Assembly: GCA_031267755.1 (NCBI GenBank)
Contig: JAIRYP010000011.1
Location: 128,761 to 192,760, forward strand
Length of the DNA: 64,000 nt
DNA from: Clostridiales bacterium
Lineage (GTDB): Bacteria; Bacillota; Clostridia; Monoglobales; JAIRYP01
Reading direction: 5' to 3'
The notes under the pieces are model-generated. The model searched no databases and was not told the origin of the DNA. It saw only the letters and a program-made list of their open reading frames with translations. Positions within the stretch are counted from its first letter, which is position 1; each line of letters opens with the position of its first letter. Of this stretch, positions 6,041 through 37,617 are shown piece by piece. The position numbers were made by a program, and so were the translations under genes.

Positions 6041-6817
6041 TTGAATAAATCAGATTTAAGCCAAAATACAAAAAGAGAAATCGAATCGTTTGCAAAATAT
6101 AAATTTAATAAATTAAATGGACCGCAAGACAATAAAAAAGATTTCAAAAACCCTATTGTTGAAAAAATTAGAAACGCAATAAAAAAAAACAATATTGAAA
6201 ACATAAAAAAATCAAAAAACAAAAAATCTCCTGAAGGAATTGCAGAAATTGTTGAAGACGAAGTAATCAAATTGATGAAGGAAGGAAAAAATGAATCCGA
6301 AGCTTTAAAATATGTCATGGATAATTTTGACAAAATTTCAAACGAAAACGATGACTCAAACAATGACACTAAAAACATTACAAACTCAATTAGTCCTTCA
6401 CCATATACTAGTTCATTTGATAAAGATTTTGATTATAAAAAAGCCCTCGAAAAACTTAATAAAATTGATCCATTACTACACGAACTTTCTCCTTTTGCTG
6501 ATCCATCAAAACTTTCAAAAACAAATTACTCATCCTACTTTGATTCGCTTTTAAATACGCCATCATCTATTCTTTCTTCAAACAAAAAAAACATTGATTC
6601 AACTTCATTTAAAAAAGAATGGTATGACAAAAATGGCGAATCAGTCGGATTGTTTTATGCAGCCTTTATTATGCTTGGGCTCACATTTGGTTCACTTCTT
6701 GGATATCTTACAAATTATACTCCTTTGAATGCTGCTATCGGCATATTAATTGGCTTTAGCGTTGGAATCGGACTTGGTTTGCTAACAAACGCCTTACTTA
6801 TAACATTTAAGAAATAA
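6041..6817 (+). CDS. hypothetical membrane protein (Lys/Asn-rich N-terminal region, two C-terminal TM helices)
   Basis: 258-aa ORF with a TTG start. The C-terminus VGLFYAAFIMLGLTFGSLLGYL ... AAIGILIGFSVGIGLGLLTNALLI is strongly hydrophobic. I recognise no family. It is the only sizeable ORF in this gap; the overlapping antisense ORF at 6016-6378 is low complexity. Confidence 0.5.
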   Translation: MNKSDLSQNTKREIESFAKYKFNKLNGPQDNKKDFKNPIVEKIRNAIKKNNIENIKKSKNKKSPEGIAEIVEDEVIKLMKEGKNESEALKYVMDNFDKISNENDDSNNDTKNITNSISPSPYTSSFDKDFDYKKALEKLNKIDPLLHELSPFADPSKLSKTNYSSYFDSLLNTPSSILSSNKKNIDSTSFKKEWYDKNGESVGLFYAAFIMLGLTFGSLLGYLTNYTPLNAAIGILIGFSVGIGLGLLTNALLITFKK

Positions 6818-15571: not shown

Positions 15572-16162
15572 ATGATGAGATTTTTATTTATTTTTTTATT
15601 GATAATAAATTTGTGTAGCTGCAAAGAAACTAAAGATTACAACAATAACACTTACAAAAACGAAACATTTAAAGATGATGAAAGATATAAAAGGTCTGGC
15701 CTAGAAAGAATGTCAGGTGACGAAATAAGCAATCTTGAAGAAACTGCATATATGATGCATCGTACCGAAGATAAAAAGGCTGCAAAACACGTTATGACAA
15801 CTCCACAAGGCGACTCGCCCACACTTTGGTCATTAGCGCAAATAAAACTTTTCATGGAAAATCACAATATCGGAAATTATACTGAATTATATTACACACT
15901 GAAAGGTTATAAAGTAAAAAAAGGAACACGAGAACACGATGGAAGTGGCGAAGCAGGAGCATCAATATTTAAAAATAATTATGACTATATAAAAGCAAAA
16001 TATGAATTAATTATAGAAAATTGGGACGTCCTTCGCGAAAATATTCCAGGAATACATTTAAACTCCGAAGAAGCTGAAAAAGTTATTGAATTTGCTTTTT
16101 GCACTAGTGAAGAGTTTTATAATAAATATCCCGAAAGTTTATCAGGATCTCCTGTTGAGTAG
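15572..16162 (+). CDS. hypothetical lipoprotein
   Basis: 196 aa with the signal peptide plus lipobox MMRFLFIFLLIINLCS-C and a GGGG-containing RBS region upstream. I recognise no family. Confidence 0.6.
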   Translation: MMRFLFIFLLIINLCSCKETKDYNNNTYKNETFKDDERYKRSGLERMSGDEISNLEETAYMMHRTEDKKAAKHVMTTPQGDSPTLWSLAQIKLFMENHNIGNYTELYYTLKGYKVKKGTREHDGSGEAGASIFKNNYDYIKAKYELIIENWDVLRENIPGIHLNSEEAEKVIEFAFCTSEEFYNKYPESLSGSPVE

Positions 16163-17618: not shown

Positions 17619-19385
17619 ATGAATGAAGTATTAGAAGAAATTTTATTTTTAAGAAACGAAATAAAAAAAAATAACCATCTTTATTATAATTTAGATGATC
17701 CTGTTATAAGCGATTTTGAATACGATGAACTCATGAGGCGTCTTGAATTTTTGGAATTGCAAAATCCAGACTTTATGAAAAACAACTCACCGTCACAAAT
17801 CGTCGGAGGCAAAGCACTTAAAACATTCAAAAAAATTGACCATAAAGAATCAATGGAAAGTTTAAGTAACGTTTTTTCTAAAGAAGAATTTCTTAATTTT
17901 GATTCAAAAATCAAAAAAACATTAAATCAAAAAAAATATAATGAAGAAATAGAGTATGTTTTAGAAACAAAAATAGATGGTCTTTCAGTTTCGATTGAAT
18001 ATGAAACTGGAGAAATTGTACGTGGTTCAACAAGAGGCGATGGGAAAATTGGAGAAGACGTAACTGAAAATTTAAAAACAATAAGAACTCTACCACAAAA
18101 CGTAAAAACATCACTTGATTACTTCGAAGTTAGAGGTGAGGTTTTTATGTCCAAAGAAAATTTTACAAAGTTGAATCAAGAAAGAAAAATCCAAGGAGAA
18201 AAAGAATTTTCAAATCCAAGAAATGCTGCAGCGGGTTCTCTTAGACAATTAGATTGCAATATTACAAAATATAGAAACTTAGATATACTAATATTTAATT
18301 TACAAAAGATCGTTGGCATAGAATTTGAAACACACACCGAATCACTTAAATTTCTTAATGATATTGGTTTCAATGCAAGCCCAATTATTTACAAATCAAG
18401 TAATATTGAAAATATATTTTTGCATATTGAAAAACTTGAACAAGAAAAGGAAAAATATTTACATCAAATTGATGGTGCAGTAGTAAAAGTCAACAATTTA
18501 AATCTTCGAAAAATTCTCGGTAGCACATCAAAAAGTCCAAGATGGGCAATAGCTTATAAATTTTCTGCTGAAAAAAAGGAAACAAAAATAGAAGACATTG
18601 TAACTCAAATTGGAAGAAGTGGTGCAATAACTCCAATTGCAATATTGAAACCTGTAGATCTAGGCGGAACAACGGTAACTAAAACAACGCTTCACAATAT
18701 TGATAACATCAAAAACAAAGACATTCGAATTGGAGACTATGTTTTAGTTCAAAAATCAGGAGATATAATACCTGAAATAATTTGTTCTTTTAAAGAAAAA
18801 CGACTCGGAAATGAAAAAATATTTGTTATGCCAAAAAAATGTCCCGCTTGCAATACCGATCTCAAAAAAGAAAAAAATGAAATTATAATAAAATGTACAA
18901 ATTTATTTTGCCGTGCGAAAAGTCATAAAAGTATCATACATTTTGTGTCAAGACATGCTATGGAAATTAATGGACTCGGAGTTTCTGTAATCGCTCAATT
19001 ACTTGAATGTAAAATGATTGAAGACTTTGCAGATATTTATTATTTAAAATATGAAAAACTAATAAACCTTGCAAGATTTGGCGATAAATCTGCGAAAAAA
19101 TTATTGGAATCAATTTATGAATCTAGAAAAAGAAGTTTGGAAAGACTCTTATATGGACTTGGAATACCGTTAATTGGTTTAAATGCTGCAAAAATAATAT
19201 CGAAAAAATTTTCAAATATGAAAAATATTATGAATAGTTCAATTGAAGATTTTTTAAACATTCCTGAAATCGGAGAAAAAATGGCAAAAAACATATTTAT
19301 ATATTTTAAAAACAATAAATCTCAAGAATTAATCAAAAAATTGGAATCTGCAAACATAAACATGAATTATTATATTGATGAATAA
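17619..19385 (+). CDS. ligA: NAD-dependent DNA ligase LigA (short form, no BRCT domain)
   Basis: 588 aa with the adenylation motif KIDGLS, an OB fold, a Cys4 zinc finger (CPACNT...CTNLFC) and HhH repeats (LYGLGIPLIGLNAAKII, IPEIGEKMAKNI). The protein ends directly after the HhH region. Confidence 0.95.
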   Translation: MNEVLEEILFLRNEIKKNNHLYYNLDDPVISDFEYDELMRRLEFLELQNPDFMKNNSPSQIVGGKALKTFKKIDHKESMESLSNVFSKEEFLNFDSKIKKTLNQKKYNEEIEYVLETKIDGLSVSIEYETGEIVRGSTRGDGKIGEDVTENLKTIRTLPQNVKTSLDYFEVRGEVFMSKENFTKLNQERKIQGEKEFSNPRNAAAGSLRQLDCNITKYRNLDILIFNLQKIVGIEFETHTESLKFLNDIGFNASPIIYKSSNIENIFLHIEKLEQEKEKYLHQIDGAVVKVNNLNLRKILGSTSKSPRWAIAYKFSAEKKETKIEDIVTQIGRSGAITPIAILKPVDLGGTTVTKTTLHNIDNIKNKDIRIGDYVLVQKSGDIIPEIICSFKEKRLGNEKIFVMPKKCPACNTDLKKEKNEIIIKCTNLFCRAKSHKSIIHFVSRHAMEINGLGVSVIAQLLECKMIEDFADIYYLKYEKLINLARFGDKSAKKLLESIYESRKRSLERLLYGLGIPLIGLNAAKIISKKFSNMKNIMNSSIEDFLNIPEIGEKMAKNIFIYFKNNKSQELIKKLESANINMNYYIDE

Positions 19386-19492
19386 TTCACAATATTATTA
19401 ACAAAATATAATTTTTTAAGTAAAAACATTGACTAAAATCAAAAAATATTTAAAATTTTTTTACATTAAAAATAACGAGGAGGAAAAAATCA

Positions 19493-21421
19493 ATGTTTTG
19501 TGTTGCTAAAAGTCCTTATTTTAACAAACTAGTAAAAAAACAAACTAAAGATATTTTCACCAACATTATTTCATCAAAACTAAATGATGATCAAAAAATA
19601 ATTTTAAAAAAAAGTCAAGAATTAGGTGGACCGAATTATGAAGCTCTTCAAATTATAAAAATTCTTGCTACAGTTATGGAAGAAAAACGTTTAATTATTT
19701 TTGAAACAGATGTTGATATCCATAATTATAAATTTTTTTTTGAAAGATTTTTAAATTACCTAGCCCAAACAGATACTTTTAAAAAAATATTTTTAAAAGA
19801 AAATTTTATTAAAGAATGTTCAAAAAATGATTTTGATTTTCTTTGTAATATTTTTATATATTTTTTTGCTCCGGCTGCATTCGAAGAAAACTGTGGACGT
19901 AAATTAGAAATAGTTATAGAAAAAGCAATTCCAATATTTTTAGAATTACATAAACAAAAAATTCCACATTCACTTAATGAATATAGATTTATAATCTCCA
20001 AATACATATTATATTTTCCTTTAAAAATGCAAAAAAAAATTATTGAATTTTTAGTTAAATATGACCCAAAGATTCTAGACGAATTTCGCGACGAATTTCC
20101 CGAAGAAAAAACAAAACTAATTCTTTTAGCAAAACTTGCTAATGAAAATGAAAAAGTAAGTGATTTAATTGTTAGAATGTCTTGTGAACTATCAATCAAC
20201 GCCACAACTTTTTTGTTTTTTGTAAAACTAGAAATGAAAAAAATAGATTTAGAAAATATAGATTATTTTAATTTTATTGAAACTGGATGGTATGAAATAT
20301 TTGATAAATGGAAAGGATTTGAACAAGCTTTAGTCATACTTTTAAAAACAAAGCTTGAAAAAAAAGTTATATCAAAATATGATCCAAAATGTCTTCAAAA
20401 TTTATATGACAAAATTTTACGTAATGTTCAAAACAATAATTCAACAACACTCGAAGAAGATGAAGAAGATTTAGAAGAGAAGGATTTAAAAAAGATAGCA
20501 GAAAGAATTTTTATTCTTTTTTGTTGTGGAAAAATAACTCGTGGTCAAGCTTTAAAATTGAGCCAAAACAAATTTAATTCTGTAGATAATATTCCATTTA
20601 TTGAAAAAAGAGGAATTTCTTTTTCCGCAAAATTTAATGATCATAATATCATAAAGGAAGATGAATTTCAAGTTGAAGAAATTCCAATTTTTGGAATATA
20701 TCCTTTAACGGGCACAGAAAAATCACTTAAAAAAACTAAAGAAGAAAACGAAGCAATATTAAAATCTAAACAAAAACCCGATCAAACATCGAATAAATCA
20801 CAAACTATAGGTATTAAAAATGAATCTTTAGAAAAAATAGAAACAGAACTTACTTCCAGACAACTTGCGGCAAATTTTGTTTATACAAAAAAATTAAAAA
20901 CAAAAATTAAAAAAGATTTGGAAAATTTGAGTGAAAAAAAACTTTTTTCTGATGAACATATTATTCCAAAAGTTAAAGAAATAAATGATGTAATCGAAAT
21001 AATAGGACTTTCCATTTTTATAGCGTACCTTCCAGATGAAAAAATATCAAGAAGAGATTCTAAAAATATTCATGACTTACTTATGAATGCAAGTAAAAAT
21101 TACTTTTCAAAAAATCGACAAGAACTTTCAGAATGGAAAGAAAAAATATTAGAAATTATAAAAAACCCGGATTCAGAAGCAACTGAAATTAAGAAAAAAT
21201 TAATCGAAATTCACTCTCATTATTTACAAAAAATAAATCCTAATATTCATATTTTCATAATTTTCCGATGGGCCGTAATACTAGCAGATTCTTTATTAGA
21301 TTTTTTAAAGGGACTTCAAACGCGTGAGCAAATATTTAACAAAACAGAATTTAAAAATTTAACTCCATTTCTAAAAAAAGATTCAAATGAACGCGATATT
21401 TTCGATCCTGTTTTAAATTGA
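19493..21421 (+). CDS. hypothetical protein, large paralog family C, member 1
   Basis: 642-aa ORF with an AGGAGG RBS. It shares blocks with 23376-25499: IIKEDEFQVEEIPIFGIYPLTGTEKS versus IIKEDEILEEETQVFGVYPTSGTTRS, and ILFCCGKITRGQALKL versus LLFISGKISEEKILEI. It has no signal peptide and no recognisable domain. Confidence 0.7.
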   Translation: MFCVAKSPYFNKLVKKQTKDIFTNIISSKLNDDQKIILKKSQELGGPNYEALQIIKILATVMEEKRLIIFETDVDIHNYKFFFERFLNYLAQTDTFKKIFLKENFIKECSKNDFDFLCNIFIYFFAPAAFEENCGRKLEIVIEKAIPIFLELHKQKIPHSLNEYRFIISKYILYFPLKMQKKIIEFLVKYDPKILDEFRDEFPEEKTKLILLAKLANENEKVSDLIVRMSCELSINATTFLFFVKLEMKKIDLENIDYFNFIETGWYEIFDKWKGFEQALVILLKTKLEKKVISKYDPKCLQNLYDKILRNVQNNNSTTLEEDEEDLEEKDLKKIAERIFILFCCGKITRGQALKLSQNKFNSVDNIPFIEKRGISFSAKFNDHNIIKEDEFQVEEIPIFGIYPLTGTEKSLKKTKEENEAILKSKQKPDQTSNKSQTIGIKNESLEKIETELTSRQLAANFVYTKKLKTKIKKDLENLSEKKLFSDEHIIPKVKEINDVIEIIGLSIFIAYLPDEKISRRDSKNIHDLLMNASKNYFSKNRQELSEWKEKILEIIKNPDSEATEIKKKLIEIHSHYLQKINPNIHIFIIFRWAVILADSLLDFLKGLQTREQIFNKTEFKNLTPFLKKDSNERDIFDPVLN

Positions 21422-21447
21422 CAAAATTAAAATTAATTTAATGTGAG

Positions 21448-23343
21448 GTGTTAATTTTGATTAAAAAATTTAAAGTTCCTGAAAGAATTCATATAAGAAA
21501 CATGGAAAATAAATATAGGGATTCAAATCCATTTCCTCCCGCAGATAGAGAAGAAATTTTAAACCTTGCGTTTAAATTTAAATACAATGAATCACCATAT
21601 TGGAAAAAAATTTCAATTTTTTTATCTAAATTAATTTTTAAAAAAAAATTGGTATTAGAATCTTTAGATGAATTTAAAAAATTTTTATATGAATTTAATT
21701 TTCTTTTTTTTAATGTAAAAGAAGTGCAAAATAACTTACATTTTTTTGTGAATAAAACTGAATCCGAAGCAGCCAAAAAAACTTCTATAAATTTTAAATT
21801 TACTTTAGACATATTTAGCATTTCCTTATGTTATTTTAATTGTCTTGAACATTATTTTGAATTATTAAAAATAAAAGCAGATGAAAATAAAATAAAATAT
21901 TTTTTCGAAATTGTAGTCCCAATATATTTACAACTTTTAAAACTTGATGAAAATGGAAAAATTCACCCTTTATTCAATAAAAACTTGCTAGAAATTTCAA
22001 AATATTTGGCAGAATATTCTGAAATAGAAAAAGAAAAAATTATAAAATACATGTGTAACAATGACCCAGAAGAAACATTAAATTTACAAGAATTAGAAAA
22101 CAAAAATTTGAATAGAAAATTATTAATTATTAATGAAGATATTGATGATGATTGTGAAATTAATTTTTTAAGCAAATATATTGCTCACGAAATTTTTAAT
22201 GATAAAACTGATGAAAAAGGTTTTAAATTAGCTTTAATATTAGAAAAATCTGGACATAGTGCGTGTATTGAAAAAATAAATTTAAATAATTTAGGAGAAA
22301 TTGGAAATTGGGAAGGTTATGAAGAGATTTTAGCACGTTTAATTGGGTTAAATTTTAGTGAAGAAGATTTAAAAAAAATTTTTCCAAATTTAAAAGACAT
22401 AAAAGATTTTGCCCAACATTTAGAAGGACTTTCTATTTCTACAAGATCAAAAAAAGTAAAAAAAATAAAGGCTTTAGAATTGTCTTATCTTGTTTTAATG
22501 GGAGTAATGAGCTCACAGCAAGCTTTGGAATATATGGAAACATCAGAAAATCTCGCCGGTATTCCATACATTCAAAATCCAAATGGAGAATTTGAGCTAA
22601 AATTCGCTGATAATGTTTCCGAAAACAATCTAAGTTCATTGCAGATTCCAACTAATGTTGCCTTAAATATAAATAATATACCAGGAGTTATTCACGTATC
22701 AGATGATACCGTAAAAGAAATTGCAGAAGAAGCTCCGGAAGATTCACATGAAGAGGCTGTGGAAGAAATTGCAGAAGATTCAGATGAAGAGACTACGGAA
22801 GAGAAATTTGCAGAAAAAATTCCTGAAGTCGCAACTACAACTGACGAAGAACCAAATAAATCAATCTTAAATATAGAAAAAAATGAAATTTTAGAAAAAA
22901 ACGATTTTAATATAAATTGGACGGAAAATTTTTTAGAAATGTTTTTCTTATATATTAAAAATCAAAAAGAACTAACACATAAGAATGTTAAAGTTTATGA
23001 ACTTTTTTTAAAACAATTTTTTTCTAAAGAGCACAAAATCGTTTTTGAAAAGATTGAACATGAAATAGAAAATATTATGAGAAATGATGGTTTAAACAAA
23101 GAAGAAAAAATAACTGAAATTTCACATTTTATGAATTTAGAATTAAAAAAAATTAACCCTTATTGTGACAAAACTACCGTAGTTATGTTCTTATTAAAGT
23201 TTTACGATTTCTTGAAAGATATTTTTTGCCCAATTAAAACAGAAGATATTATTTTCAAACTTAAAAAACAAACAAAACAGCACACAAAGTTTCAAACTAA
23301 CGAAAATACACTTGCAAATCCAGATAAAACAAGTAAAACGTAA
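21448..23343 (+). CDS. hypothetical protein, large paralog family C, member 2
   Basis: 631-aa ORF. The start is ambiguous: GTG 21448, TTG 21457 or ATG 21502, all after GAGGTG. It is collinear with members 1 and 3 (YLVLMGVMSSQQALEYM block) and has an acidic linker EIAEEAPEDSHEEAVEEIAEDSDEETTEE. Confidence 0.65.
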   Translation: MLILIKKFKVPERIHIRNMENKYRDSNPFPPADREEILNLAFKFKYNESPYWKKISIFLSKLIFKKKLVLESLDEFKKFLYEFNFLFFNVKEVQNNLHFFVNKTESEAAKKTSINFKFTLDIFSISLCYFNCLEHYFELLKIKADENKIKYFFEIVVPIYLQLLKLDENGKIHPLFNKNLLEISKYLAEYSEIEKEKIIKYMCNNDPEETLNLQELENKNLNRKLLIINEDIDDDCEINFLSKYIAHEIFNDKTDEKGFKLALILEKSGHSACIEKINLNNLGEIGNWEGYEEILARLIGLNFSEEDLKKIFPNLKDIKDFAQHLEGLSISTRSKKVKKIKALELSYLVLMGVMSSQQALEYMETSENLAGIPYIQNPNGEFELKFADNVSENNLSSLQIPTNVALNINNIPGVIHVSDDTVKEIAEEAPEDSHEEAVEEIAEDSDEETTEEKFAEKIPEVATTTDEEPNKSILNIEKNEILEKNDFNINWTENFLEMFFLYIKNQKELTHKNVKVYELFLKQFFSKEHKIVFEKIEHEIENIMRNDGLNKEEKITEISHFMNLELKKINPYCDKTTVVMFLLKFYDFLKDIFCPIKTEDIIFKLKKQTKQHTKFQTNENTLANPDKTSKT

Positions 23344-23375
23344 AGTATTAAATTTTTTAAAGTTGGTGTTAAATT

Positions 23376-25499
23376 ATGACGAGGTGGGCAAAAGAAGAAA
23401 TAATTAATAATTTGATAAAAATGCAAAATAATATTTTATTAGGTAAACTTACTGAAGAACAAAAAGAAACACAAACAAAAGCAAGAAAATTAGGTCTAGG
23501 TTATAATGGCGTAGCCCAAATAGTCTCTAATTTAATCGTTTTAACACAAGAAAATGATGAATTCAAATACTTAGTTAAAATTAATCAAGAAGGATTTGAA
23601 AATTTTTGTAAAGAAATTTTTAAAATGGCTGAAGTTCAAGGAATATCAAATAATGTAATGATGACTAACAAAGAAATGAAAGAAAAAACAGCTATTTTAG
23701 CAAAAACATTTACTGAAATGATGACTTATTATCAAATCGAAGAAAAATATTCAGACGCTATAAACCTTGAAATAAAAGAAAAAATGCAAACAATTTTATT
23801 TCCGAGAAAAGAAAAGAAAAGCGCTGAACAAGTTTTACACGAAACTTTTTCAACTCTTTGGAATATTGTTTCTCACGAAGATAAACTTTTTAGAGGTTTA
23901 ATTCATGAGTATCAAATGGCAAGAATATTAAGAAAATTCAACCCAACTGAACAGGAAAAAATATTTAAATATTTAGGTAAATTTGAAGTAAATGAATTAC
24001 CTGAATTAGAAAATAAAGATTTACAAGAAAAATTATTAATGTTTAGAAAATTTTTACATCGAATGAGTTCTAGGGATGAATATTATTGTGTAAGCTCTCA
24101 GATACTCCAAATAATATTCTCAAAAACTGACAAAAAACATCTTAAAGAATTGTTTAAACTTGAAGAAGAAGACAAGTTTCATTCTTATCCAAGCCAAATC
24201 AAAAAATTGCCTGAACTACTTGAAACTGATTGGTCAAAACATATGGGCTTATTATTTGATATTTTAAAAATCGATAATTATGGATATGACTGCAATTTTT
24301 TATTAAGCTTCTCAGGTCATGCAGACGAGATAAGCGAAGTGTACACTATGATAAAAGAAAATTTTAACTCAAATAATATGCAAATGAACGAACAAGAGCG
24401 TGCATTATGTGGTGAAAAATTATTATTACTTTTTATATCAGGAAAAATAAGTGAAGAAAAAATTTTAGAAATTGCAAAGAGACAAGTTTCAAGTCCTGAC
24501 GAAATTCCAAAATGTTCAATTTCAGAATATCGTGGTTATATTAAACCTGATGAGCCTGATGGAGAAATTAAATGCATTGAAGAAAAATCAAATCATCGTT
24601 TTAAAGTTGAAATCACTCCCAATTCAATAATTAAAGAAGATGAAATACTAGAAGAAGAAACCCAAGTTTTTGGCGTATATCCAACAAGCGGTACCACAAG
24701 ATCTCGCGAAGAAACATGGCATGAACAAACTAGTAAATATTGGGCATTAAATCCGATATCAATAAAAGGAGAACATGTTCATGAAAAGGAAGAAGAAAGA
24801 GGAGAAGAAACTGAAGAAGAAAAAAATCTTCGAGAACGTGTTAAAGAACAAAATAGCGATTTAGAAGAATTTTTAGATTATGTTAAGTCTTTGCCAGATG
24901 AAGATATTACCTTTGTAGAAAGAGAAAACACACATTTAGAAATTGGAAATTCTTCAAATGATTCTCTCCCAGAAGGGAAAGCTTTAAGCGAAGAACAAAA
25001 ACGTAAAAATTTAACATTTTCTTTAGTAGCGTTGGCTTTTTTGCTCGCTTATCCATCAGATAAAATTATTTTAAATAGGGAATATAAAAGTTTGGATGCT
25101 TTTTCAAAATTTATGAAAGGTGAAATTGATGAAAAATATAGAGAATTTTTTAAACAATCAGTTAAATCAATTATTCATAGAATGAAATTTGACAATTCTT
25201 ATATTGGAAAACAAGAAAAAGCTGAAAAAATAAAAAAATTAATAACGGATGAAATAAACTCTTTCGGTCGATTTTATCTTTATAAAGATATGTTCGTTCT
25301 AAAACGATATTTACAATGTCTTGTCGATTGGTTTGTTGATAGGTTTTTTAAATCCAAAACACGTGAAGAAATTTGTGAAAAAAATCCGGACATTAAAAGA
25401 CAGTTGTTTACGCTTCCTAAAAACCCTGTAGAAATTAGCAAATTCAATAAAATCACTTCTGAAACTCCTTCGGAAAATTCAGAATCTCACAGTTTATAA
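23376..25499 (+). CDS. hypothetical protein, large paralog family C, member 3
   Basis: 707-aa ORF. Its N-terminal block LTEEQKETQTKARKLGLGYNGVAQIVSNLIVL parallels member 1 (LNDDQKIILKKSQELGGPNYEALQIIKILATV). It has an acidic linker EKEEERGEETEEEKN and a C-terminal block LTFSLVALAFLLAYPSDKI. Confidence 0.7.
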   Translation: MTRWAKEEIINNLIKMQNNILLGKLTEEQKETQTKARKLGLGYNGVAQIVSNLIVLTQENDEFKYLVKINQEGFENFCKEIFKMAEVQGISNNVMMTNKEMKEKTAILAKTFTEMMTYYQIEEKYSDAINLEIKEKMQTILFPRKEKKSAEQVLHETFSTLWNIVSHEDKLFRGLIHEYQMARILRKFNPTEQEKIFKYLGKFEVNELPELENKDLQEKLLMFRKFLHRMSSRDEYYCVSSQILQIIFSKTDKKHLKELFKLEEEDKFHSYPSQIKKLPELLETDWSKHMGLLFDILKIDNYGYDCNFLLSFSGHADEISEVYTMIKENFNSNNMQMNEQERALCGEKLLLLFISGKISEEKILEIAKRQVSSPDEIPKCSISEYRGYIKPDEPDGEIKCIEEKSNHRFKVEITPNSIIKEDEILEEETQVFGVYPTSGTTRSREETWHEQTSKYWALNPISIKGEHVHEKEEERGEETEEEKNLRERVKEQNSDLEEFLDYVKSLPDEDITFVERENTHLEIGNSSNDSLPEGKALSEEQKRKNLTFSLVALAFLLAYPSDKIILNREYKSLDAFSKFMKGEIDEKYREFFKQSVKSIIHRMKFDNSYIGKQEKAEKIKKLITDEINSFGRFYLYKDMFVLKRYLQCLVDWFVDRFFKSKTREEICEKNPDIKRQLFTLPKNPVEISKFNKITSETPSENSESHSL

Positions 25500-25538: not shown

Positions 25539-26816
25539 ATGAAACTTTTGATAAAAAATGGAAGAATTGTAAATCCAGCAAATAATTTAGAAGAGACATT
25601 TGATATTTTAAGCGAAAACGGAATCATAAAAAAAATTGAAAAAAATATAACGGAAAATTCAGACGTTATAATAAACGCAAAACATAAAATAGTTATTCCT
25701 GGGCTTATAGATGTTCATTCGCATTTTAGAGATCCCGGAGAAACACATAAAGAAGATATAATTTCGGGATGTAAAGCCGCCGAAACAGGCGGTTTTACTT
25801 CAATTGTGTGCATGGCAAATACAAATCCTGTAATAGATAATGAATTTGTCATAAAATACATAATTGATAAAGCAAAAAAATTTTCAAAAGTAAACATCTT
25901 TCCAGTTGCCTCAATTACCAAAGGAATGTTAGGTAATGAACTTACAGAAGTTGGAAAACTGAAAAAATTTGGCATTGTTGGAATTTCAGATGATGGTAAG
26001 CCCGTTGAAAACGCATCAATTTTGCGAAATAGCTTACTTTATTCGAAAATGTTTAATATTCCATTATTTTCGCATTGTGAACGTCTTGATATGACATCTG
26101 GCACAGTAATGAATGAAGGAATCATGGCAACAAGTTTAGGACTTATAGGTGCGCCAAATGTCTCAGAAAGTGCAGCAATAGCTGCAGATATATTAATAGC
26201 CGAATCAGTAAATTCAAAAATACACATATGCCACGTTAGTACAAAAGAATCCGTTGAAATCATTAGAATTGCTAAAAAAAAAGGAATAAAAGTAACGTGC
26301 GAAACTGCTCCACATTACTTTTCGCTCACTGATGAGATGGTGCGCGGTTATAACACAAACGCTAAAGTAAATCCACCGCTTAGAGATCACAATGACGTTT
26401 TGGAAATTATAAAAGGTTTAAGTGATGGAACAATTGATATAATTGCAAGTGACCATGCGCCTCACCACGAAGATGATAAAAACTTGCCATTTTGTATGGC
26501 AAAATGCGGTATAATTGGTCTTGAAACCTCTTTAGCAATTGGCATGACTTTTCTTGTAAAAAAAGAAAAAATAAGTCTTATGGAACTAATAAAAAAAATG
26601 ACATTGAATCCAAATAAGTTAATAAACGTTGATAGAGGTTCTATTGAAGTTGGGAAAGTTTCTGATATAACAATATTTGATGAAAAAGAAAAATGGATTG
26701 TTGATGCAAAAAAAATTAAAAGTAAATCAAAAAACTCTCCATTCATAGGTTTTGAGCTTTATGGCAAGGTAAAATATACAATCGCTGCTGGAGAAATAAT
26801 ATACAAAGACGATTAA
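25539..26816 (+). CDS. pyrC: dihydroorotase
   Basis: 425 aa with metal-binding motifs DVHSHFRDPG and ASDHAPH. Confidence 0.92.
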   Translation: MKLLIKNGRIVNPANNLEETFDILSENGIIKKIEKNITENSDVIINAKHKIVIPGLIDVHSHFRDPGETHKEDIISGCKAAETGGFTSIVCMANTNPVIDNEFVIKYIIDKAKKFSKVNIFPVASITKGMLGNELTEVGKLKKFGIVGISDDGKPVENASILRNSLLYSKMFNIPLFSHCERLDMTSGTVMNEGIMATSLGLIGAPNVSESAAIAADILIAESVNSKIHICHVSTKESVEIIRIAKKKGIKVTCETAPHYFSLTDEMVRGYNTNAKVNPPLRDHNDVLEIIKGLSDGTIDIIASDHAPHHEDDKNLPFCMAKCGIIGLETSLAIGMTFLVKKEKISLMELIKKMTLNPNKLINVDRGSIEVGKVSDITIFDEKEKWIVDAKKIKSKSKNSPFIGFELYGKVKYTIAAGEIIYKDD

Positions 26817-26858
26817 AATATTTAAAAAATATAACTATTTCATATTCAGAGGTATTTT

Positions 26859-27773
26859 GTGTCGATCGATTTAATGATTGAAAAAATTAAAGAAAAAAAT
26901 GATACACCTATTTCTGTAGGACTTGATCCAAAAATTGATTATATACCAAACGATATAAAAAACATAATATCAAAAAAATACGGTTTTGGGCCTAAATTTG
27001 CAGCAAAATGTTTGTACGAATTTAATAAAGGAATAATAGACGCAATTTATGATATTGTTCCAATCGTTAAAATACAGTCAGCTTATTATGAACTATATGG
27101 CTCAGAAGGAATTTTTACGTTTGCAGATACCATAAATTATGCTAAAATGAAGGGTTTATACGTTATCGTTGATGTAAAAAGAAATGATATTGAAGAAACA
27201 AGCGAAGCGTATGCTAACGCTTATTTAGGAAAAACAAATATAACATATAATTCAAAATTTCAAGCGTTTGGCGCAGATTCTATGACAGTTAATCCATATT
27301 TTGGTTCTGATGGAATAGTACCATTTATAAATGTTTGTAAAAAATATTCCAAAAGCATTTTTACAATAGTCAAAACTTCAAATAAATCTTCATTTGAAAT
27401 TCAAGATTTAATTTGTGAAGGCGTACCACTTTACGAAAAAATTGCACATTTTGTTTCAGAATGGGGCAAAGATTTAATTGGAAAAAATAACTACAGTAAT
27501 ATCGGTGCAGTAATCGGTGCAACACATCCAAAAGTTTTCAAAACTCTTAGAAAAATTATGAAAAAATCATATTTTTTAGTGCCAGGATGTGGAGCTCAAG
27601 GAGGGTCAGTTAAAAATATTTCAGACGCTTTTAATGAAAACGGCTTAGGTTGCATAATAAACGCATCTCGCTCTATAATCTGTGCACACATGAAAAACAA
27701 CGAAAATTATCAAAATGAAGCAAGACGCGAAACCTTAAAACTTAGTTACGATGTGAAAAAATTATTTTCATAA
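26859..27773 (+). CDS. pyrF: orotidine 5'-phosphate decarboxylase (long, type 2)
   Basis: 304 aa (GTG start) with VGLDPK, the VDVKRNDI catalytic-Lys region and VPGCGAQGG. Confidence 0.88.
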   Translation: MSIDLMIEKIKEKNDTPISVGLDPKIDYIPNDIKNIISKKYGFGPKFAAKCLYEFNKGIIDAIYDIVPIVKIQSAYYELYGSEGIFTFADTINYAKMKGLYVIVDVKRNDIEETSEAYANAYLGKTNITYNSKFQAFGADSMTVNPYFGSDGIVPFINVCKKYSKSIFTIVKTSNKSSFEIQDLICEGVPLYEKIAHFVSEWGKDLIGKNNYSNIGAVIGATHPKVFKTLRKIMKKSYFLVPGCGAQGGSVKNISDAFNENGLGCIINASRSIICAHMKNNENYQNEARRETLKLSYDVKKLFS

Positions 27774-27843
27774 TTAGACTGTTAATAAAAATAACTAAAT
27801 TAAAATTAAAAAATATAAGATTTCTGTATTAAAGAGGTATATC

Positions 27844-28608
27844 GTGCTTTATGAATTATCCAAAAAAAAAGCTATTAATGACAAAATATTTGACTTTGAA
27901 GTTGAAAGTTTTAATTCAACCGAAAATGTTAAAGCGGGACAATTTTTTTATATAGATTGTGGTGGCAAAAGTTTTTTAAGACGTCCAATAAGTATATGTG
28001 ATGTTTTAGATGGAAAATTACGATTTATTTTTGAAATTCGAGGAATTGGAACTTATGAATTATCCAAAAAAAAATGTGGTGAAAAAATCGATATTCTGGG
28101 CCCATTTGGAAAACCATTCAACACTGAATTTGGTAAAAATAAAATTTCTATATTGATAGGAGGTGGAATTGGAATTATTCCTCTTTTTAAACTTTCGAAA
28201 GAACTTGAAAAGGTTGTAGCTATACTTGGTTTTAAAACAAAAGAATCTATTTTTCTTAAAGAAGAATTTGTTTCGACATGTGATAAAGTTATTATAACGA
28301 CAGATGATGGAAGCTTTGGAAAACATGGTAACGCGTTTGAGGCACTTGAAGATACACTAGAACGTGAAGAAAACAAAAAAAATATTGGTGCGCTGTACAC
28401 TTGCGGACCTAAAAAATTAATTTATGGTGTTGCAAAATTCGGAATAACAAACAACATTAAAACACAGGTTTCAATGGAAGAACACATGGGATGTGGAATT
28501 GGTGCATGCATGGCTTGTGTGTGTGACACGACAGAAGGAAAAATGCGAGTGTGTAAAGAAGGACCAGTTTTCGATTCGAAAAAAATTTTAAACAATTTTG
28601 AAGAGTAA
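27844..28608 (+). CDS. pyrK: dihydroorotate dehydrogenase B electron-transfer subunit
   Basis: 254 aa with the FAD-binding motif RRPISICD and a C-terminal 2Fe-2S cluster motif CGIGACMACVC...CKEGPVF. Confidence 0.9.
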   Translation: MLYELSKKKAINDKIFDFEVESFNSTENVKAGQFFYIDCGGKSFLRRPISICDVLDGKLRFIFEIRGIGTYELSKKKCGEKIDILGPFGKPFNTEFGKNKISILIGGGIGIIPLFKLSKELEKVVAILGFKTKESIFLKEEFVSTCDKVIITTDDGSFGKHGNAFEALEDTLEREENKKNIGALYTCGPKKLIYGVAKFGITNNIKTQVSMEEHMGCGIGACMACVCDTTEGKMRVCKEGPVFDSKKILNNFEE

Positions 28609-28828
28609 ATAAAACTTTAAAAACTTAAACGCAACTTGAACAATAATCAAAAACACTTTATTGTTATTAACAAAATTTAATATAAAATTTTAAAGTTGAT
28701 AAAAAATAACTAATTGAAATAAGCTTTTATTTTTGAAATTTATATAATTTAATATCAATCAACAAAATAAAAAAAATTTTACAAGTAAAAATGCTATAAT
28801 TTTATGTTTAACAAAAAGGGGCATAAAT

Positions 28829-29749
28829 TTGACTCAAAAAAAAATAAATATGAAAGTGGATATTGGTGGGGTAGTCTGGAAAAACCCAGTTTCAACAGCA
28901 TCAGGCGTCTTCGGATTTGGAGAAGAATACTCAAGTTTTTTTGATATAAATGCGCTTGGAGCAATATGTTTAAAATCTCTCACGCTTAAAAAACAAGTTG
29001 GGAACGATTCTCCAAGAATTGCAGAAACTTCATCTGGAATTTTAAATAGCATCGGTCTTCAAAATCCAGGCATTGATTTTTTTATAAAACATGAACTACC
29101 AAAACTTAAAAAAATTTGCAAAACAAACATAATTGCAAGCATTGCTGGTTCGTCAATAGAAGAGTACGCAATTATTGCTGAAATGTTAGGTTCAAACGTT
29201 AATATGATTGAACTTAATATTTCATGCCCCAATGTTAAAGAAGAATGTATAACGTTTGGAATTAACTCAAAATCAGTTGAAAACATAACAAAAAAAATTA
29301 AAAAAGTGTCTAAAGTTCCTTTGATTGTCAAACTTTCTCCGAATGTTGAAAATATTTGTGATATATCAAAAGCAGCTGAATCGGGGGGGGCAGACGCACT
29401 ATCGCTTGTAAATACTTTCTTGGGTATGAAAATAGATATAAAAAATCAAAAACCTTACTTCAAAAACACCTTTGCTGGACTTTCTGGGCCAGCAATAAAA
29501 CCCATTGCACTCAGAATGGTATGGCAAGCTAGGCTTGCAACAAAACTTCCAATAATCGGACTTGGAGGAATAACATGCACAAATGATGCGTTAGAATTTC
29601 TAATGGCTGGTGCAAACGCCGTGGCAATCGGAACATATGGTTTTTTTGATCCACTCATTTGGCCCAAAATTAAAGATGGTATAGAAAAATATTTAATTGA
29701 AAATAACATAAATGACATAAAAAATATATCTTTAACAAATTCATATTAA
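28829..29749 (+). CDS. pyrD: dihydroorotate dehydrogenase B catalytic subunit
   Basis: 306 aa with WKNPVSTASG, ELNISCPNV and GLGGI. The TTG at 28829 is 7 nt after AAAGGGG. The alternative ATG at 28850 (MKVDIGG) is in frame. Confidence 0.9.
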   Translation: MTQKKINMKVDIGGVVWKNPVSTASGVFGFGEEYSSFFDINALGAICLKSLTLKKQVGNDSPRIAETSSGILNSIGLQNPGIDFFIKHELPKLKKICKTNIIASIAGSSIEEYAIIAEMLGSNVNMIELNISCPNVKEECITFGINSKSVENITKKIKKVSKVPLIVKLSPNVENICDISKAAESGGADALSLVNTFLGMKIDIKNQKPYFKNTFAGLSGPAIKPIALRMVWQARLATKLPIIGLGGITCTNDALEFLMAGANAVAIGTYGFFDPLIWPKIKDGIEKYLIENNINDIKNISLTNSY

Positions 29750-33242: not shown

Positions 33243-35444
33243 CTATTTTTGATTAGAATGATCGAAAGTCTTTTCTTTCTTTTCAACCTGTTTTTCAAAA
33301 TCTTCAGACGATTGAAAAGTTGAATGTTCTGTAACTTTTTCTCGATCTTGCACCGCAGTGGAACTTTCACTTCTTGAATGGAAAGGTGGTAAATGTTTTA
33401 GGGGATAAAAATCCTCATTTCCTTTTAATTTTATTGGTTTCTCAAAAACAGCATCTGGATATCTACAGTGATTATAGTATGGAGCAAGAAAAAATATATG
33501 CAATAAACCGCTTCTAAAAAATAAATAAATAGCTTGAAAAAAAATATATATTTTGCTTCTTTTAAGCCCATCGCGTTCAAGTATTTTAATCATAGCCTTA
33601 ACTTTTATTTTCTTTTTTTCCTTTGAATCTAACACTTCATGTAAGGACCGCTTGCCCTCTTCACTTAATTTAATTTTTTCAGCTTTGAGTAACGCTAACA
33701 AAAAAAGCAACTGTTCCTCATAAGCGTTTAAACGTCGAGTCGTCATATATTTTTTTTCCGCAAAATCATTCAAACGTTTATTAAAAGAATCTTTTTCTTC
33801 TTCTACTTTGCCTTCTACTTCTTTACCTTCTTCGTTTTCTTCTTCTACTTCTTTTTCTTCTTCTACTTCTTCTACTTCTTTACCTTCTTCGTTTTCTTCT
33901 TCTACTTCTTTTTCTTCTTCTACTTCTTCTACTTCTTTACCTTCTTCGTTTTCTTCTTCTACTTCTTTTTCTTCTTCTACTTCTTTTTCCTCTTTTTCTT
34001 CTTTTTCTTTTTGAAGAATCCTCTCATAAAATTTCTCAACATTTTGATCGAAATTTGAATAATCCAATAGATGTATATTATAACCATATTCATCCATATA
34101 AAAAGATACTTTTTCTTTAAAATCTGATAATTGTTTCAATAATCCAGGTTCTCGATCTCCACTTTTTTTAAACTTTTCAACTATTTTATAAACTTTTGGG
34201 CTTCCAAAAAACGCAAAATTTAAAATAATTCTTTCTCTAAAATTTAATTTTTTTTCTATAGTTAAATCAACAGAAAATCCAAAAGGAAGCCACATATTTC
34301 CATTTTGCCACAAACCTACAATACAAGCCTCTTTAAGCGCTTGTTTAAAATAAATATGTTTAAATTCTCTTTTAGAACAAATATTAAACTTCCTAATTAA
34401 CATCTGAACAAATTCCGAAGGCTTTTTATTTTTTTCACAAAAATCAGTTAAAGTGAGTGCTGGAACTAAAACAAGAGCACCTAAATCTTGAGAAGAACAA
34501 GAATCACTTTCAAGAGGTTCAATACAATCAAGTAAACGTAAAACTCGATTATCAAAGACCTCATTAAACTCTATTGTTTCAGTACAATTTGGAATTGCAA
34601 AATAACCTAAAAAAAAGAAAAAGAAAATTTTACTTGCATCATTAAAAGAACTAACTCGACCTAAAACATTTTGTGAAAAACCTAATTTCTCTAAATCATA
34701 AAAATTTTCATTACCAACTCCGCCACAAATAATTGATTGATGCAAAATATATAAAATATCATTTTTCAATTCTGGAGTTAAACTAGACATTGGCGTAATT
34801 TGTTTTTTTAAATCTTCAAAACTTTTTGACAAATTAATAGGAAAACTCATACAAGTCTGCAAAGATTGTTTATGATTTGAAATGCGACAATGCCGAATTC
34901 TAAAAATTTTAGTTATTGCAGCATAATTATATTTGTCAATATAATCAAAACTACTAAAATACTCAATAAAACGTTCAAAATATTTTAAACCTAAACCTTC
35001 GCGCTCATCAAAACAACGAGATTCAAAAATAATATTTTCCACATTGCTCAATAATTCTTCTTTTTGACTTGGATTCAAAGAATTATAATTCAGTCCACTA
35101 GTTAAAATAATTAAGGTACAAACAAATTTAATAAACCTATCTGGTTCTGTTGTAAATAAAATAACAGATTTACAAAATCTTTCTTCTTTAAATAATTCTA
35201 AAATAATGATTTTTAAAACTTCACTATTCTCGACAAATGGATATCCATAATTTTGTGAAATAAAACTAGAAATTTCTTCTAAAATATTCCAAAATTTTTC
35301 TATGTTAGAATCAGAAATATAATATTCTTTTGGTGGTTTATTAAAATCAACACCCACAAATGAATCATTTACTATTTCTCTTACTTCATTAATCTCATCT
35401 TGAAATTTACTACCTGATTCGCTAATAAGTTCAATTAAATTCAT
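33243..35444 (-). CDS. hypothetical protein with acidic tandem repeat; divergent fourth member of family C
   Basis: 733-aa ORF. Its C-terminal block EEQLLFLLALLKAEKIKLSEEGKRSLHEVL parallels LTFSLVALAFLLAYPSDKIILNREYKSLDAF (member 3) and IEIIGLSIFIAYLPDEKISRRDSKNIHDLL (member 1). An acidic linker sits at the same relative position. Confidence 0.65.
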   Translation of the reverse strand: MNLIELISESGSKFQDEINEVREIVNDSFVGVDFNKPPKEYYISDSNIEKFWNILEEISSFISQNYGYPFVENSEVLKIIILELFKEERFCKSVILFTTEPDRFIKFVCTLIILTSGLNYNSLNPSQKEELLSNVENIIFESRCFDEREGLGLKYFERFIEYFSSFDYIDKYNYAAITKIFRIRHCRISNHKQSLQTCMSFPINLSKSFEDLKKQITPMSSLTPELKNDILYILHQSIICGGVGNENFYDLEKLGFSQNVLGRVSSFNDASKIFFFFFLGYFAIPNCTETIEFNEVFDNRVLRLLDCIEPLESDSCSSQDLGALVLVPALTLTDFCEKNKKPSEFVQMLIRKFNICSKREFKHIYFKQALKEACIVGLWQNGNMWLPFGFSVDLTIEKKLNFRERIILNFAFFGSPKVYKIVEKFKKSGDREPGLLKQLSDFKEKVSFYMDEYGYNIHLLDYSNFDQNVEKFYERILQKEKEEKEEKEVEEEKEVEEENEEGKEVEEVEEEKEVEEENEEGKEVEEVEEEKEVEEENEEGKEVEGKVEEEKDSFNKRLNDFAEKKYMTTRRLNAYEEQLLFLLALLKAEKIKLSEEGKRSLHEVLDSKEKKKIKVKAMIKILERDGLKRSKIYIFFQAIYLFFRSGLLHIFFLAPYYNHCRYPDAVFEKPIKLKGNEDFYPLKHLPPFHSRSESSTAVQDREKVTEHSTFQSSEDFEKQVEKKEKTFDHSNQK
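33811..33981 (-). repeat. 3 x 57-bp in-frame tandem repeat encoding (EEEKEVEEENEEGKEVEEV)3
   Basis: By direct comparison, units 33868-33924 and 33925-33981 are identical. Unit 33811-33867 differs only at its first base. The period of 57 bp equals 19 codons. Confidence 0.9.
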
Positions 35445-36357: not shown

Positions 36358-37617
36358 TTATTTCCCCGGAACAGTTGCTTTTTTAGGAGCAGGGGCTTTA
36401 GCTTTAGGAGGCATTGCATTAGGCGGCGTAATCGGGGTAGATTGACGATATAATTCTACTTCGTTTTCTTGTTTTTGAGTTATTGCATCCTTAGCATGAA
36501 TAACTAAATCACTAATTTTTTCTTCGTCAATGTGTGGCAAGTTTGCATCCACATGCTTTTTTGCAAGAAATTCAAGTGCGCTGTGATCGCCATTTTTTGC
36601 TTTTTCCATATTAATTTGTATTTCTTTCAATTTTGCTTCTAATTCTTTTAATCTTTTCGAACAAGTATCTGCGCAAATGTCAAGCTCGTCTTTAATTATT
36701 TTGGTAAGATTACGAAAATCTTCTATTGATTTTTCATACATTTTTTTAACGAGTTCTTTCCTAAAATCTTTCGAAGAATCAGGAAAAGCGTTTTTAACTA
36801 ACCGTCCTAAATTCTTCTCCAATTCGTGAGACGTTTCAATCAATTGATTATAAAACTTTTCTCCTAGCTTACCTAAAGATTTAAAATATCTCAAAACCTT
36901 TATAATTTCTGTTGAAACAACACTTAACTCTTTACCTCCTCTTTTTAATTTTTCAACATATTCTATTGCCTTATCAATAGCTTCATCAAATGACACCGTT
37001 TTTTCTGACGACATTTTATCTGATGCTAATTCAACTGGCAATGATTCGTTCGCTGAGAATGAGTCAAGCGTTAGTTTCTCTGGCGAAGAAATTTTGGAGG
37101 ATGAATCGAGCATTGGTTTTTCTGATGAAAAATCATTCGATAAATCGGGCGAAATTGTAAACGATGAAGTTTCTAAAACTGGTAAAGTTCCTGAGCCTTC
37201 AGGGTCTTTATAATCTTCTGGCTCTGAAATTGTTAAATTGGGATTCGACGCCTCAGTGGTTTCTGTTTGACTAGTTTTAACTACTCCTAATGCATCATTC
37301 TCTGGTAATTTTTCTAAATTTTCTTCTTTAATTTTTGTAGCATCAATTTCTTTTACTTTTTCTCTCTCTTGATTTATTTTCTTTTTTATTTTTTCAAATT
37401 TACTGTAATTTTCGAAAAATAAAAAATCTTTTTCAAAAGAATGCAAAATCAATAAAATAATCAAAATAGGTGTAAAAAACAAACAAATAATAAATTGAAA
37501 TATCATTTTGTAAAAAATTTTATTTTGCTGTTTGATTAATTCTTTTATGTTTTCGGTATCATCAGAATGTTTTTCAATCTTTTTAAAATCAATCATGTTT
37601 TTCACCACCTGAAACAA
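36358..37617 (-). CDS. hypothetical single-pass membrane coiled-coil protein, KKATV[PH]GK-tail family (type A, copy 1)
   Basis: 419 aa. The N-terminus KKIEKHSDDTENIKELIKQQNKIFYKMIFQFIICLFFTPILIILLIL is near-collinear with 40233-41417. A Ser/Glu/Pro-rich linker is followed by a helical C-domain ending PPNAMPPKAKAPAPKKATVPGK. Confidence 0.75.
   Translation of the reverse strand: MFQVVKNMIDFKKIEKHSDDTENIKELIKQQNKIFYKMIFQFIICLFFTPILIILLILHSFEKDFLFFENYSKFEKIKKKINQEREKVKEIDATKIKEENLEKLPENDALGVVKTSQTETTEASNPNLTISEPEDYKDPEGSGTLPVLETSSFTISPDLSNDFSSEKPMLDSSSKISSPEKLTLDSFSANESLPVELASDKMSSEKTVSFDEAIDKAIEYVEKLKRGGKELSVVSTEIIKVLRYFKSLGKLGEKFYNQLIETSHELEKNLGRLVKNAFPDSSKDFRKELVKKMYEKSIEDFRNLTKIIKDELDICADTCSKRLKELEAKLKEIQINMEKAKNGDHSALEFLAKKHVDANLPHIDEEKISDLVIHAKDAITQKQENEVELYRQSTPITPPNAMPPKAKAPAPKKATVPGK

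Follow-up and report, generated by a model that had tools for sequence, protein, structure and literature searches.

Three tandem paralogs of a newly recognized orphan protein family between ligA and pyrC in an apparently reduced, AT-rich Clostridia genome

Lineage-specific expansions of orphan open reading frames (ORFans) and of effectors are familiar from obligate intracellular bacteria, as in the Inc proteins of Chlamydia and the effector paralog groups of Legionella and Coxiella. Firmicutes offer a further point of reference in the morphogenetic proteins of the spore coat and exosporium (SpoVID, CotE, and the C. difficile proteins CdeC and CdeM). In this report, we describe three tandem genes, here called A, B, and C, that lie between ligA and pyrC on contig JAIRYP010000011.1 of a metagenome-assembled genome (MAG) labeled “Clostridiales bacterium”. 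They fall within a 64-kb stretch of DNA that was analyzed as a whole and is called the window below. The explanation that we tentatively favor is that A, B, and C are soluble helical proteins of a tandem family that is specific to its lineage and maintained by selection, and that they serve as scaffolds or adaptors in the intracellular life of a symbiont.

The bacteria that this genome most calls to mind were described in 2023, when obligately intracellular “energy-parasite” Clostridia of termite-gut protists were reported (Takahashi et al., PMC10579323). Those endosymbionts have genomes of 1.0-1.3 Mb with guanine-plus-cytosine (GC) contents down to 27.5% (in RsTa-C01), and they carry TlcC as well as 94-248 pseudogenes; endospores have been reported in them (PMC10579323). 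They also possess many putative host-interfering genes, about half of whose products have a signal peptide; their eukaryotic-like proteins, about half with a signal peptide, include those with Rab-type small GTPase, Ser/Thr kinase, and Myb domains (PMC10579323). The accession series of the present MAG is not mentioned in the supplement of that paper.

An earlier examination of the DNA letters, without database searches (the sequence-only reading), had placed three same-strand open reading frames (ORFs) between ligA and pyrC. They are there, at the positions it gave, and they run free of stop codons far beyond chance expectation:

19493-21421, + strand: paralog A, an ORF of 642 amino acids (aa) with an exact match in the protein collection (MDR1391939.1, LBJ09_01955); NCBI annotation, hypothetical protein
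21457..23343 (TTG start, 628 aa) or 21448-23343 (GTG start, 631 aa), + strand: paralog B, an ORF; NCBI annotation, hypothetical protein
23376-25499, + strand: paralog C, an ORF of 707 aa (MDR1391941.1, LBJ09_01965); NCBI annotation, hypothetical protein

By exact look-up, the three proteins are MDR1391939-41 (locus tags LBJ09_01955/60/65), all annotated as hypothetical, and their contig is 257,603 bp long.

With base frequencies as they are locally, chance would place a stop every 10-12 codons, and a run of 628-707 codons without one has a probability of 1e-23 to 1e-31. The GC content of all three genes declines from codon position 1 to 2 to 3, as it does in the neighboring housekeeping genes. 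Further, a codon adaptation index (CAI) that takes eleven of the window's housekeeping genes as its training set is 0.75-0.77 in frame (0.77 for A) versus 0.48-0.53 out of frame; the housekeeping genes themselves reach 0.68-0.74, which A, B, and C equal or surpass. Because of the codon-position gradient and the high in-frame CAI, we conclude that A, B, and C are coding genes with native codon usage and not recent imports. Their overall GC content is 24-28%, versus 27-33% in neighboring genes. The three ORFs have stayed intact after diverging to ~24% identity, in a type of genome that sheds DNA, and this argues for selection against nonsense mutations. Retention by selection would be the strongest functional statement that these data support.

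That the three proteins are mutually similar and collinear was borne out, though weakly. The three-way alignment is collinear with identities of 23-24%. For A and C, BLASTP returned E = 3e-11 over 130 aa, tblastn returned 3.7e-9 over 334 aa, and the Smith-Waterman z score was 18.3. The corresponding figures for A and B were a BLASTP E of 2e-4 over 273 aa and a z of 8.6, and those for B and C were a BLASTP E of 0.11 over 88 aa (0.002-0.01 in a small search space) and a z of 10.2. The z scores were derived from 300 composition-preserving shuffles, none of which reached the real score. Judged by these alignments, A, B, and C are very distant but true paralogs, of which B is the most divergent. 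No fourth member of the family was found elsewhere in the window. Within the proteins, hhalign comparisons (N-terminal versus C-terminal, N-terminal versus middle, middle versus C-terminal, and the two N-terminal parts with each other) revealed no internal duplication (E = 0.24-0.82). Nor was a solenoid of the HEAT, TPR, ARM, or ankyrin-like kind apparent, in that no Pfam repeat family was matched and no internal sequence repeats were detected.

Conservation is concentrated (in the numbering of C) at residues ~20-40, where it is confined to A and C; at ~180-220, where all three proteins share it; in a central stretch at ~350-440; and in the last ~60 residues. The central block is placed as follows in A and C:

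20498..20716, + strand: central conserved block of A (aa ~336-408), comprising a hydrophobic helix, G-K-I-T, a helix, and IIKEDE-8 aa-FGIYPLTGT; the best-conserved segment between A and C
24411..24700, + strand: central conserved block of C (aa ~346-441), LLFISGKISEEKILEI ... IIKEDEILEEETQVFGVYPTSGT; the only region of C with a predicted local distance difference test (pLDDT) score above 65

A degenerate DNA pattern of this block matches only A and C, with 0 matches expected by chance. A, B, and C all have the GKI[ST]..[QK].L block as well as a hydrophobic helix at the C-terminus, as the sequence-only reading had it. Two other blocks that it attributed to the whole family proved to be shared by A and C and lost in B: the N-terminal LxxxQK...LG...QI block, for which its regular expression was off by one residue, and the IIKEDE...FG[IV]YP.[ST]GT block. 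An acidic low-complexity linker had likewise been ascribed to each protein. It is strong in B (net charge -15 over 30 aa, at aa ~416-460), where an imperfect tandem repeat of 24 nt at 22715-22778 encodes it. In C it is moderate (-9) and in A weak (-7), and the acidic stretch of A sits N-terminal to the central block.

The arrangement of the genes makes their expression as an operon plausible. Two candidate signals precede A:

19429..19456, + strand: promoter-like site TTGACT-16 nt-TAAAAT, in the 107-bp ligA-A spacer, from a consensus scan (10/12 matches)
19477..19483, + strand: Shine-Dalgarno sequence GAGGAGG of A, read from the sequence; strong, and 9 nt 5' of the ATG of A

The promoter-like site is a pattern match of a kind that turns up at least as often in shuffles of this DNA. 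The gaps between the genes are short, as had been noted: 32 bp between B and C, and 26 bp between A and B, the latter becoming 35 bp with the TTG start of B. NCBI begins B at the TTG at 21457 (628 aa) and JGI at the GTG at 21448 (631 aa); the TTG is the more probable start, given the NCBI call and its better Shine-Dalgarno spacing (GAGGTG, 6 nt 5'). Between ligA and pyrC, the + strand shows nothing that looks like a terminator. The sequence thus points to probable co-transcription of the three genes from a promoter ahead of A. Because nothing like a terminator intervenes, transcription may run on into pyrC-F-K-D, and the operon proposed by the sequence-only reading could be larger than the three genes.

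All searches for relatives returned the same answer. Against Pfam-A profiles, the best E-values for A, B, and C were 0.08-0.23 (12-14 bits versus a cutoff of 27), and against NCBIfam profiles the best scores were 14-17 bits versus cutoffs of 180-429. PHROGs gave no match (best E 0.07-0.96), and the sole PADLOC match, to SIR2 (E = 0.19, 9.5 bits), assigns no defense-system membership. Among PDB sequences there were 0 matches at E <= 10, whether by phmmer of A, B, and C or by hmmsearch of the three-sequence profile. An exhaustive phmmer search with C of 1.84e9 representative proteins retrieved C alone. Neither A nor the three-sequence profile found a match in word-indexed (k-mer-prefiltered) searches; A did not even retrieve itself, because its 90%-identity cluster (P0003) is represented by an unrelated 48-aa ENA fragment, a clustering artifact that renders A invisible to such a search. 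Comparisons by tblastn with 50,697 phage records and 72,556 plasmid records found no match, nor did a scan of IMG/VR with C. Metagenome scans with automatic alignment patterns and with an IIKEDE-N24-FG[IV]YP pattern were also negative, in a collection that apparently lacks the window's own contig. The contigs of the three best SecA matches were not syntenic and held nothing similar to A, B, or C. Pfam revealed no eukaryote-type domain (small GTPase, Ser/Thr kinase, Myb, etc.) in the three proteins, and the 1.84e9-protein library contained no eukaryotic homolog of C, in a situation where host protist genomes are largely unsequenced. With no match in curated profiles, PDB sequences, or large databases, the description of the family as unrecognized stands: by all these comparisons it is new at the sequence level and annotated only as hypothetical. 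That it is lineage-specific and fast-diverging fits the data but is not separable from poor sampling; the orphan status may be due in part to missing sister genomes and fast AT-biased evolution.

AlphaFold2 models were computed from the three-paralog alignment. That of A is all-helical and of low confidence (mean pLDDT 38.2); that of C is almost wholly helical (mean pLDDT 36.8), with values of 65-80 only at ~320-380 and 410-420. A Foldseek search of the PDB with the low-confidence model of C returned noise (best E 1.4, template-modeling (TM) score <= 0.12). The models suggest that A, B, and C are predominantly alpha-helical. By a hydropathy heuristic, the N-termini of A, B, and C (MFCVAKSPYFNKLVKKQTKD..., MIKKFKVPERIHIRN..., and MTRWAKEEIINNLIK...) lack the hydrophobic core of a signal peptide. 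The same kind of heuristic reveals no conserved transmembrane segment: the maximal Kyte-Doolittle 19-mer averages are 1.91 (A), 1.41 (B), and 1.65 (C), and the most hydrophobic segments contain R, D, or K and fall at non-equivalent alignment positions. A bilobed, Inc-like hydrophobic domain was not seen by hydropathy, either. We infer from these sequence features that the proteins are soluble. The sequence-only reading had seen neither a signal peptide nor a convincing transmembrane helix nor a recognizable catalytic motif. The heuristics agree with it on the first two, and Pfam and NCBIfam reveal no catalytic domain.

The surroundings of the genes are instructive. Upstream lies ligA, encoding a nicotinamide adenine dinucleotide (NAD)-dependent DNA ligase (Pfam DNA_ligase_aden/OB/ZBD/HHH). 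A C-terminal BRCT domain is usual in bacterial NAD-dependent ligases; LigA of the window (17619-19385, + strand, 588 aa) ends after the HhH domain without one, a loss that fits genome and protein reduction. Downstream of C are a dihydroorotase-type amidohydrolase (dihydroorotase in the NCBI annotation), pyrF, pyrK, pyrD, and then secA. The order pyrC-pyrF-pyrK-pyrD, at 25539-29749 on the + strand, is that of free-living Clostridia (loci L007-L045). In 13 of 16 Clostridia loci examined, an ORF with the signature of pyrB (aspartate-carbamoyltransferase, ATCase) stands directly 5' of pyrC; A, B, and C occupy this position here. A motif heuristic found no ATCase signature in the whole window, and the de novo route to pyrimidines may lack its beginning. 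Among 53 pyrC loci, all with a pyrC <=51% identical to that of the window, none has ligA near pyrC and none has an ORF like A, B, or C. Because ligA adjoins pyrC in none of them, the locus is a point of rearrangement rather than an insertion into conserved synteny.

The window also encodes a telling transporter:

57127-58680, - strand: TLC-type ATP/ADP (NTP/NDP) translocase; Pfam PF03219, E = 6e-151; NCBIfam TIGR00769, 421.9 bits versus a cutoff of 387.2

TLC translocases are a hallmark of obligate intracellular “energy parasites”, and the source bacterium probably lives inside another cell. The GC content of the window is 28%, and the sporulation genes spoIID and spoVT are present in it. Its core proteins are 45-60% identical to their nearest relatives: the best match to PyrC, among 185,579 species with one genome each, is 51% identical, and the best matches to SecA, ~60% identical, are generic Clostridia or Ruminococcaceae. 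The FYMINK/GARP ratio of SecA is 2.7, versus <=1.5 in all relatives listed, and a ranking of SecA matches by AT bias disclosed no comparably biased sister genome. Because of the TLC translocase, the 28% GC, the LigA without BRCT, the sporulation genes, and the lack of a pyrB signature, the genome appears to resemble those of the Clostridia that live in termite-gut protists. The sequence-only reading had placed A, B, and C in a core-gene neighborhood. The flanking ligA and pyr genes agree with this; the description is otherwise incomplete, as the neighborhood belongs to an apparently reduced, AT-rich genome with a TLC translocase and other tandem orphan families, and A, B, and C stand in the pyrB position.

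Indeed, two further tandem orphan families occur in the same 64 kb, together with other orphan genes:

36358-37617, 37712-38911, 40233-41417, and 41492-42199, all - strand: tandem orphan family of four members (mutual E = 1e-10 to 4e-72)
44127-44780, 44858-45511, and 45668-46249, all - strand: tandem orphan family of three members (~190-217 aa; mutual E = 2e-37 to 1e-5)
33243-35444, - strand: orphan D, 733 aa, 8 kb from A, B, and C and on the opposite strand
39125-40165, + strand: Pfam-less ORF, 346 aa, GC 22%
6041-6817, + strand: Pfam-less ORF, 258 aa, with a hydrophobic Gly-rich C-terminal segment
15572-16162, + strand: Pfam-less ORF, 196 aa, with a lipoprotein-like N-terminus (MMRFLFIFLLIINLCSC)

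Neither tandem family has a Pfam or NCBIfam match. Each protein of the four-member family finishes with KKATV[PH]GK, preceded by a Pro/Ala-rich stretch, and this conserved terminus might serve as a signal for sorting or anchoring; two of the four have an N-terminal hydrophobic segment (YKMIFQFIICLFF...). One of its genes, 37712-38911, has an unusually high GC content of 40% and encodes a Gly/Ala-rich hydrophobic region. The ORF at 15572-16162 has a weak NCBIfam match, far below the cutoff, to the BSAP5b pore-forming-toxin family (E = 2.8e-4). In its layout, orphan D resembles A, B, and C: a long N-terminal part is followed by an acidic linker made of repeats and then by a C-terminal domain (~170 aa) whose first element is a hydrophobic helix, in an equivalent relative position (LLFLLALLKAEKI versus LAFLLAYPSDKII). 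Its linker is encoded by a near-perfect 57-nt tandem repeat at 33790-34003 (3.7 copies, 94% matches; EKEVEEENEEGKEVEEVEE). As a fourth member of the family, D was rejected (hhalign E = 0.25, Smith-Waterman z <= 1.8).

The cumulative GC skew of the window falls over 1-8 kb, rises over ~8-32 kb, falls over 32-60 kb, and then rises slightly. The switches coincide with switches of gene strand near 8 kb, 33 kb, and 59 kb, and the pattern probably reflects the orientation of the genes and not an origin or terminus of replication.

We propose that tandem duplication gave rise to the family, in a Clostridia genome that is AT-rich and apparently reduced and bears a marker of obligately intracellular, ATP-importing life. 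Each protein would comprise an N-terminal helical region of ~300 aa, a short central module, a low-complexity linker of variable sequence, and a C-terminal helical region of ~180 aa. In the central module, helices would be joined by a G-K-I-[ST] turn, with IIKEDE...FG[IV]YP.[ST]GT coming next in A and C, and the module could be a binding site; the linker, acidic above all in B and C, would act as a flexible spacer. Because no catalytic domain, signal peptide, or conserved transmembrane segment was found, we read the proteins as putative soluble, non-enzymatic scaffolds or adaptors. They may either organize some process within the bacterium or attach to components of the host cell, and the duplicates would have come to differ in the partners that they bind. 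Both the scaffolding or binding role and the link to a host are what we infer. Given the intracellular context and the parallel orphan expansions, a lifestyle-specific and possibly host-directed role is plausible, and the host interaction suggested by the sequence-only reading gains circumstantial support from that context. The cytoskeletal and developmental functions that it also named are neither favored nor contradicted by our results. Several points weigh against our proposal. No ortholog was found, so that the family is known from the three paralogs of one genome; these are known from sequence alone; and the models appear too poor to confirm even the domain layout. None of the three seems to have a signal peptide, versus about half of the host-directed proteins of the described endosymbionts, and this favors a function inside the bacterium. 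The assignment of the MAG to the clade of the described endosymbionts, a small-genome clade of Acutalibacteraceae, would rest on resemblance only, with generic Clostridia at ~60% identity as the nearest by SecA. Finally, the orphan status could arise if a known family had changed beyond recognition under AT bias.

This last point leads to a rival that we consider improbable, namely that A, B, and C belong to a known bacterial family (of cell division, chromosome organization, or spore morphogenesis, for example) that has diverged extremely through AT-biased fast evolution in a small population. The extreme amino-acid bias, with the SecA ratio of 2.7 versus <=1.5, would allow for this, as would the low identity (45-60%) of even the core proteins to their closest relatives. 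Spore-coat morphogenetic proteins lack a leader, are lineage-specific, and often have acidic disordered regions, and spoIID and spoVT are in the window; endospores occur, too, in the described endosymbionts (PMC10579323). However, the housekeeping proteins of the window are still recognized at E = 1e-20 to 1e-190, whereas A, B, and C match nothing even at E <= 1-10. Moreover, we know of no standard Clostridia gene set with three paralogs of 630-700 aa into which these would fit. Unlikely to a similar degree is that the proteins are host-targeted effectors that reach the cytoplasm of the protist (through a non-classical route, leaderless export dependent on SecA, or lysis of the bacterium) and have diversified in an arms race. 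Low-complexity linkers and short conserved motifs are common in effectors, and A, B, and C have both; their rapid divergence and tandem expansion and the intracellular context indicated by the TLC translocase point the same way, and numerous putative host-interfering genes are known from the described relatives, roughly half of which lack a signal peptide (PMC10579323). Yet no signal peptide was seen in A, B, or C, no specialized secretion system was seen in the window, and neither a eukaryote-like domain nor, in the 1.84e9-protein library, a eukaryotic homolog was found.

The remaining rivals are much weaker. It is very improbable that the genes are an anti-phage defense cluster, or cargo of selfish, mobile-element, or phage origin, that was inserted beside the pyr operon. 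Their slightly lower GC (24-28% versus 27-33% in neighbors) and the break in synteny where pyrB is expected might suggest cargo, but they have native codon usage, no PHROG or PADLOC match, and no counterpart in the phage, plasmid, and IMG/VR searches. Further, no integrase, transposase, or flanking repeat accompanies them, and the nearest tRNA gene is 5 kb off. We give hardly any credence to the notion that A, B, and C are non-functional relics, annotated ORFs that are neither expressed nor selected. The dearth of homologs would permit it, as would our knowledge of the genes from DNA only and the 94-248 pseudogenes of described relatives (PMC10579323). Against it stand three intact ORFs at ~24% identity, each with a chance of 1e-23 or lower, as well as the strong ribosome-binding site of A, the coding-type GC gradient, the CAI of 0.75-0.77 in frame versus 0.48-0.53 off frame, and the conserved blocks.

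A selectively retained scaffold or adaptor family remains our preferred explanation. What can be claimed at present goes no further than an orphan family that is real, under selection, and found in suggestive surroundings; divergent MAGs commonly contain orphan families. Lineage-specific tandem ORFan families in intracellular bacteria are a well-known kind of thing, and it is the sequence family itself that is new. Because reduced genomes of intracellular bacteria lose DNA readily, 6 kb of intact paralogous coding DNA beside essential genes probably marks a need of an unusual lifestyle. ATP-importing intracellular Clostridia were recognized only in 2023, and their lineage-specific families are obvious candidates for interaction with the protist host. 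A bolder conjecture, to which we would assign little likelihood, is that A, B, and C are leaderless helical adaptors released into the protist cytoplasm, where they bind host machinery via the GKI[ST]/IIKEDE-FGxYP module, and that they possibly derive from a captured and remodeled parabasalid gene. If this were true, they and the two other tandem orphan families would constitute a set of effectors whose evolution was independent of the paradigms known from Legionella, Chlamydia, and Rickettsia.

How, then, does the family compare with known systems? Like many spore-coat proteins, A, B, and C appear leaderless and lineage-restricted and are clustered, with acidic stretches and with sporulation genes in the same window. 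Unlike those proteins, they are much larger than most, and no sequence match to them was found in Pfam or NCBIfam; no sporulation-sigma promoter was identified for A, B, or C. The likeness to the Inc proteins of Chlamydia and to the paralog groups of Legionella and Coxiella lies in a reduced genome with a TLC translocase and in fast-diverging paralogs with low-complexity linkers, no recognizable enzymatic domain, and no homologs outside the lineage. The bilobed hydrophobic domain of Inc proteins is missing, however, and, in contrast to all three of those genera, the bacterium belongs to the Gram-positive Clostridia, no secretion signal or specialized secretion system is evident for A, B, and C, and host targeting is only proposed. 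The eukaryotic-like proteins of endosymbiotic Clostridia (PMC10579323) differ from A, B, and C in having eukaryotic domains and, in about half of cases, a signal peptide. The two nevertheless have in common what is apparently the same type of genome (Clostridia, TlcC, very low GC), and in both instances accessory genes are proposed to interfere with the host.

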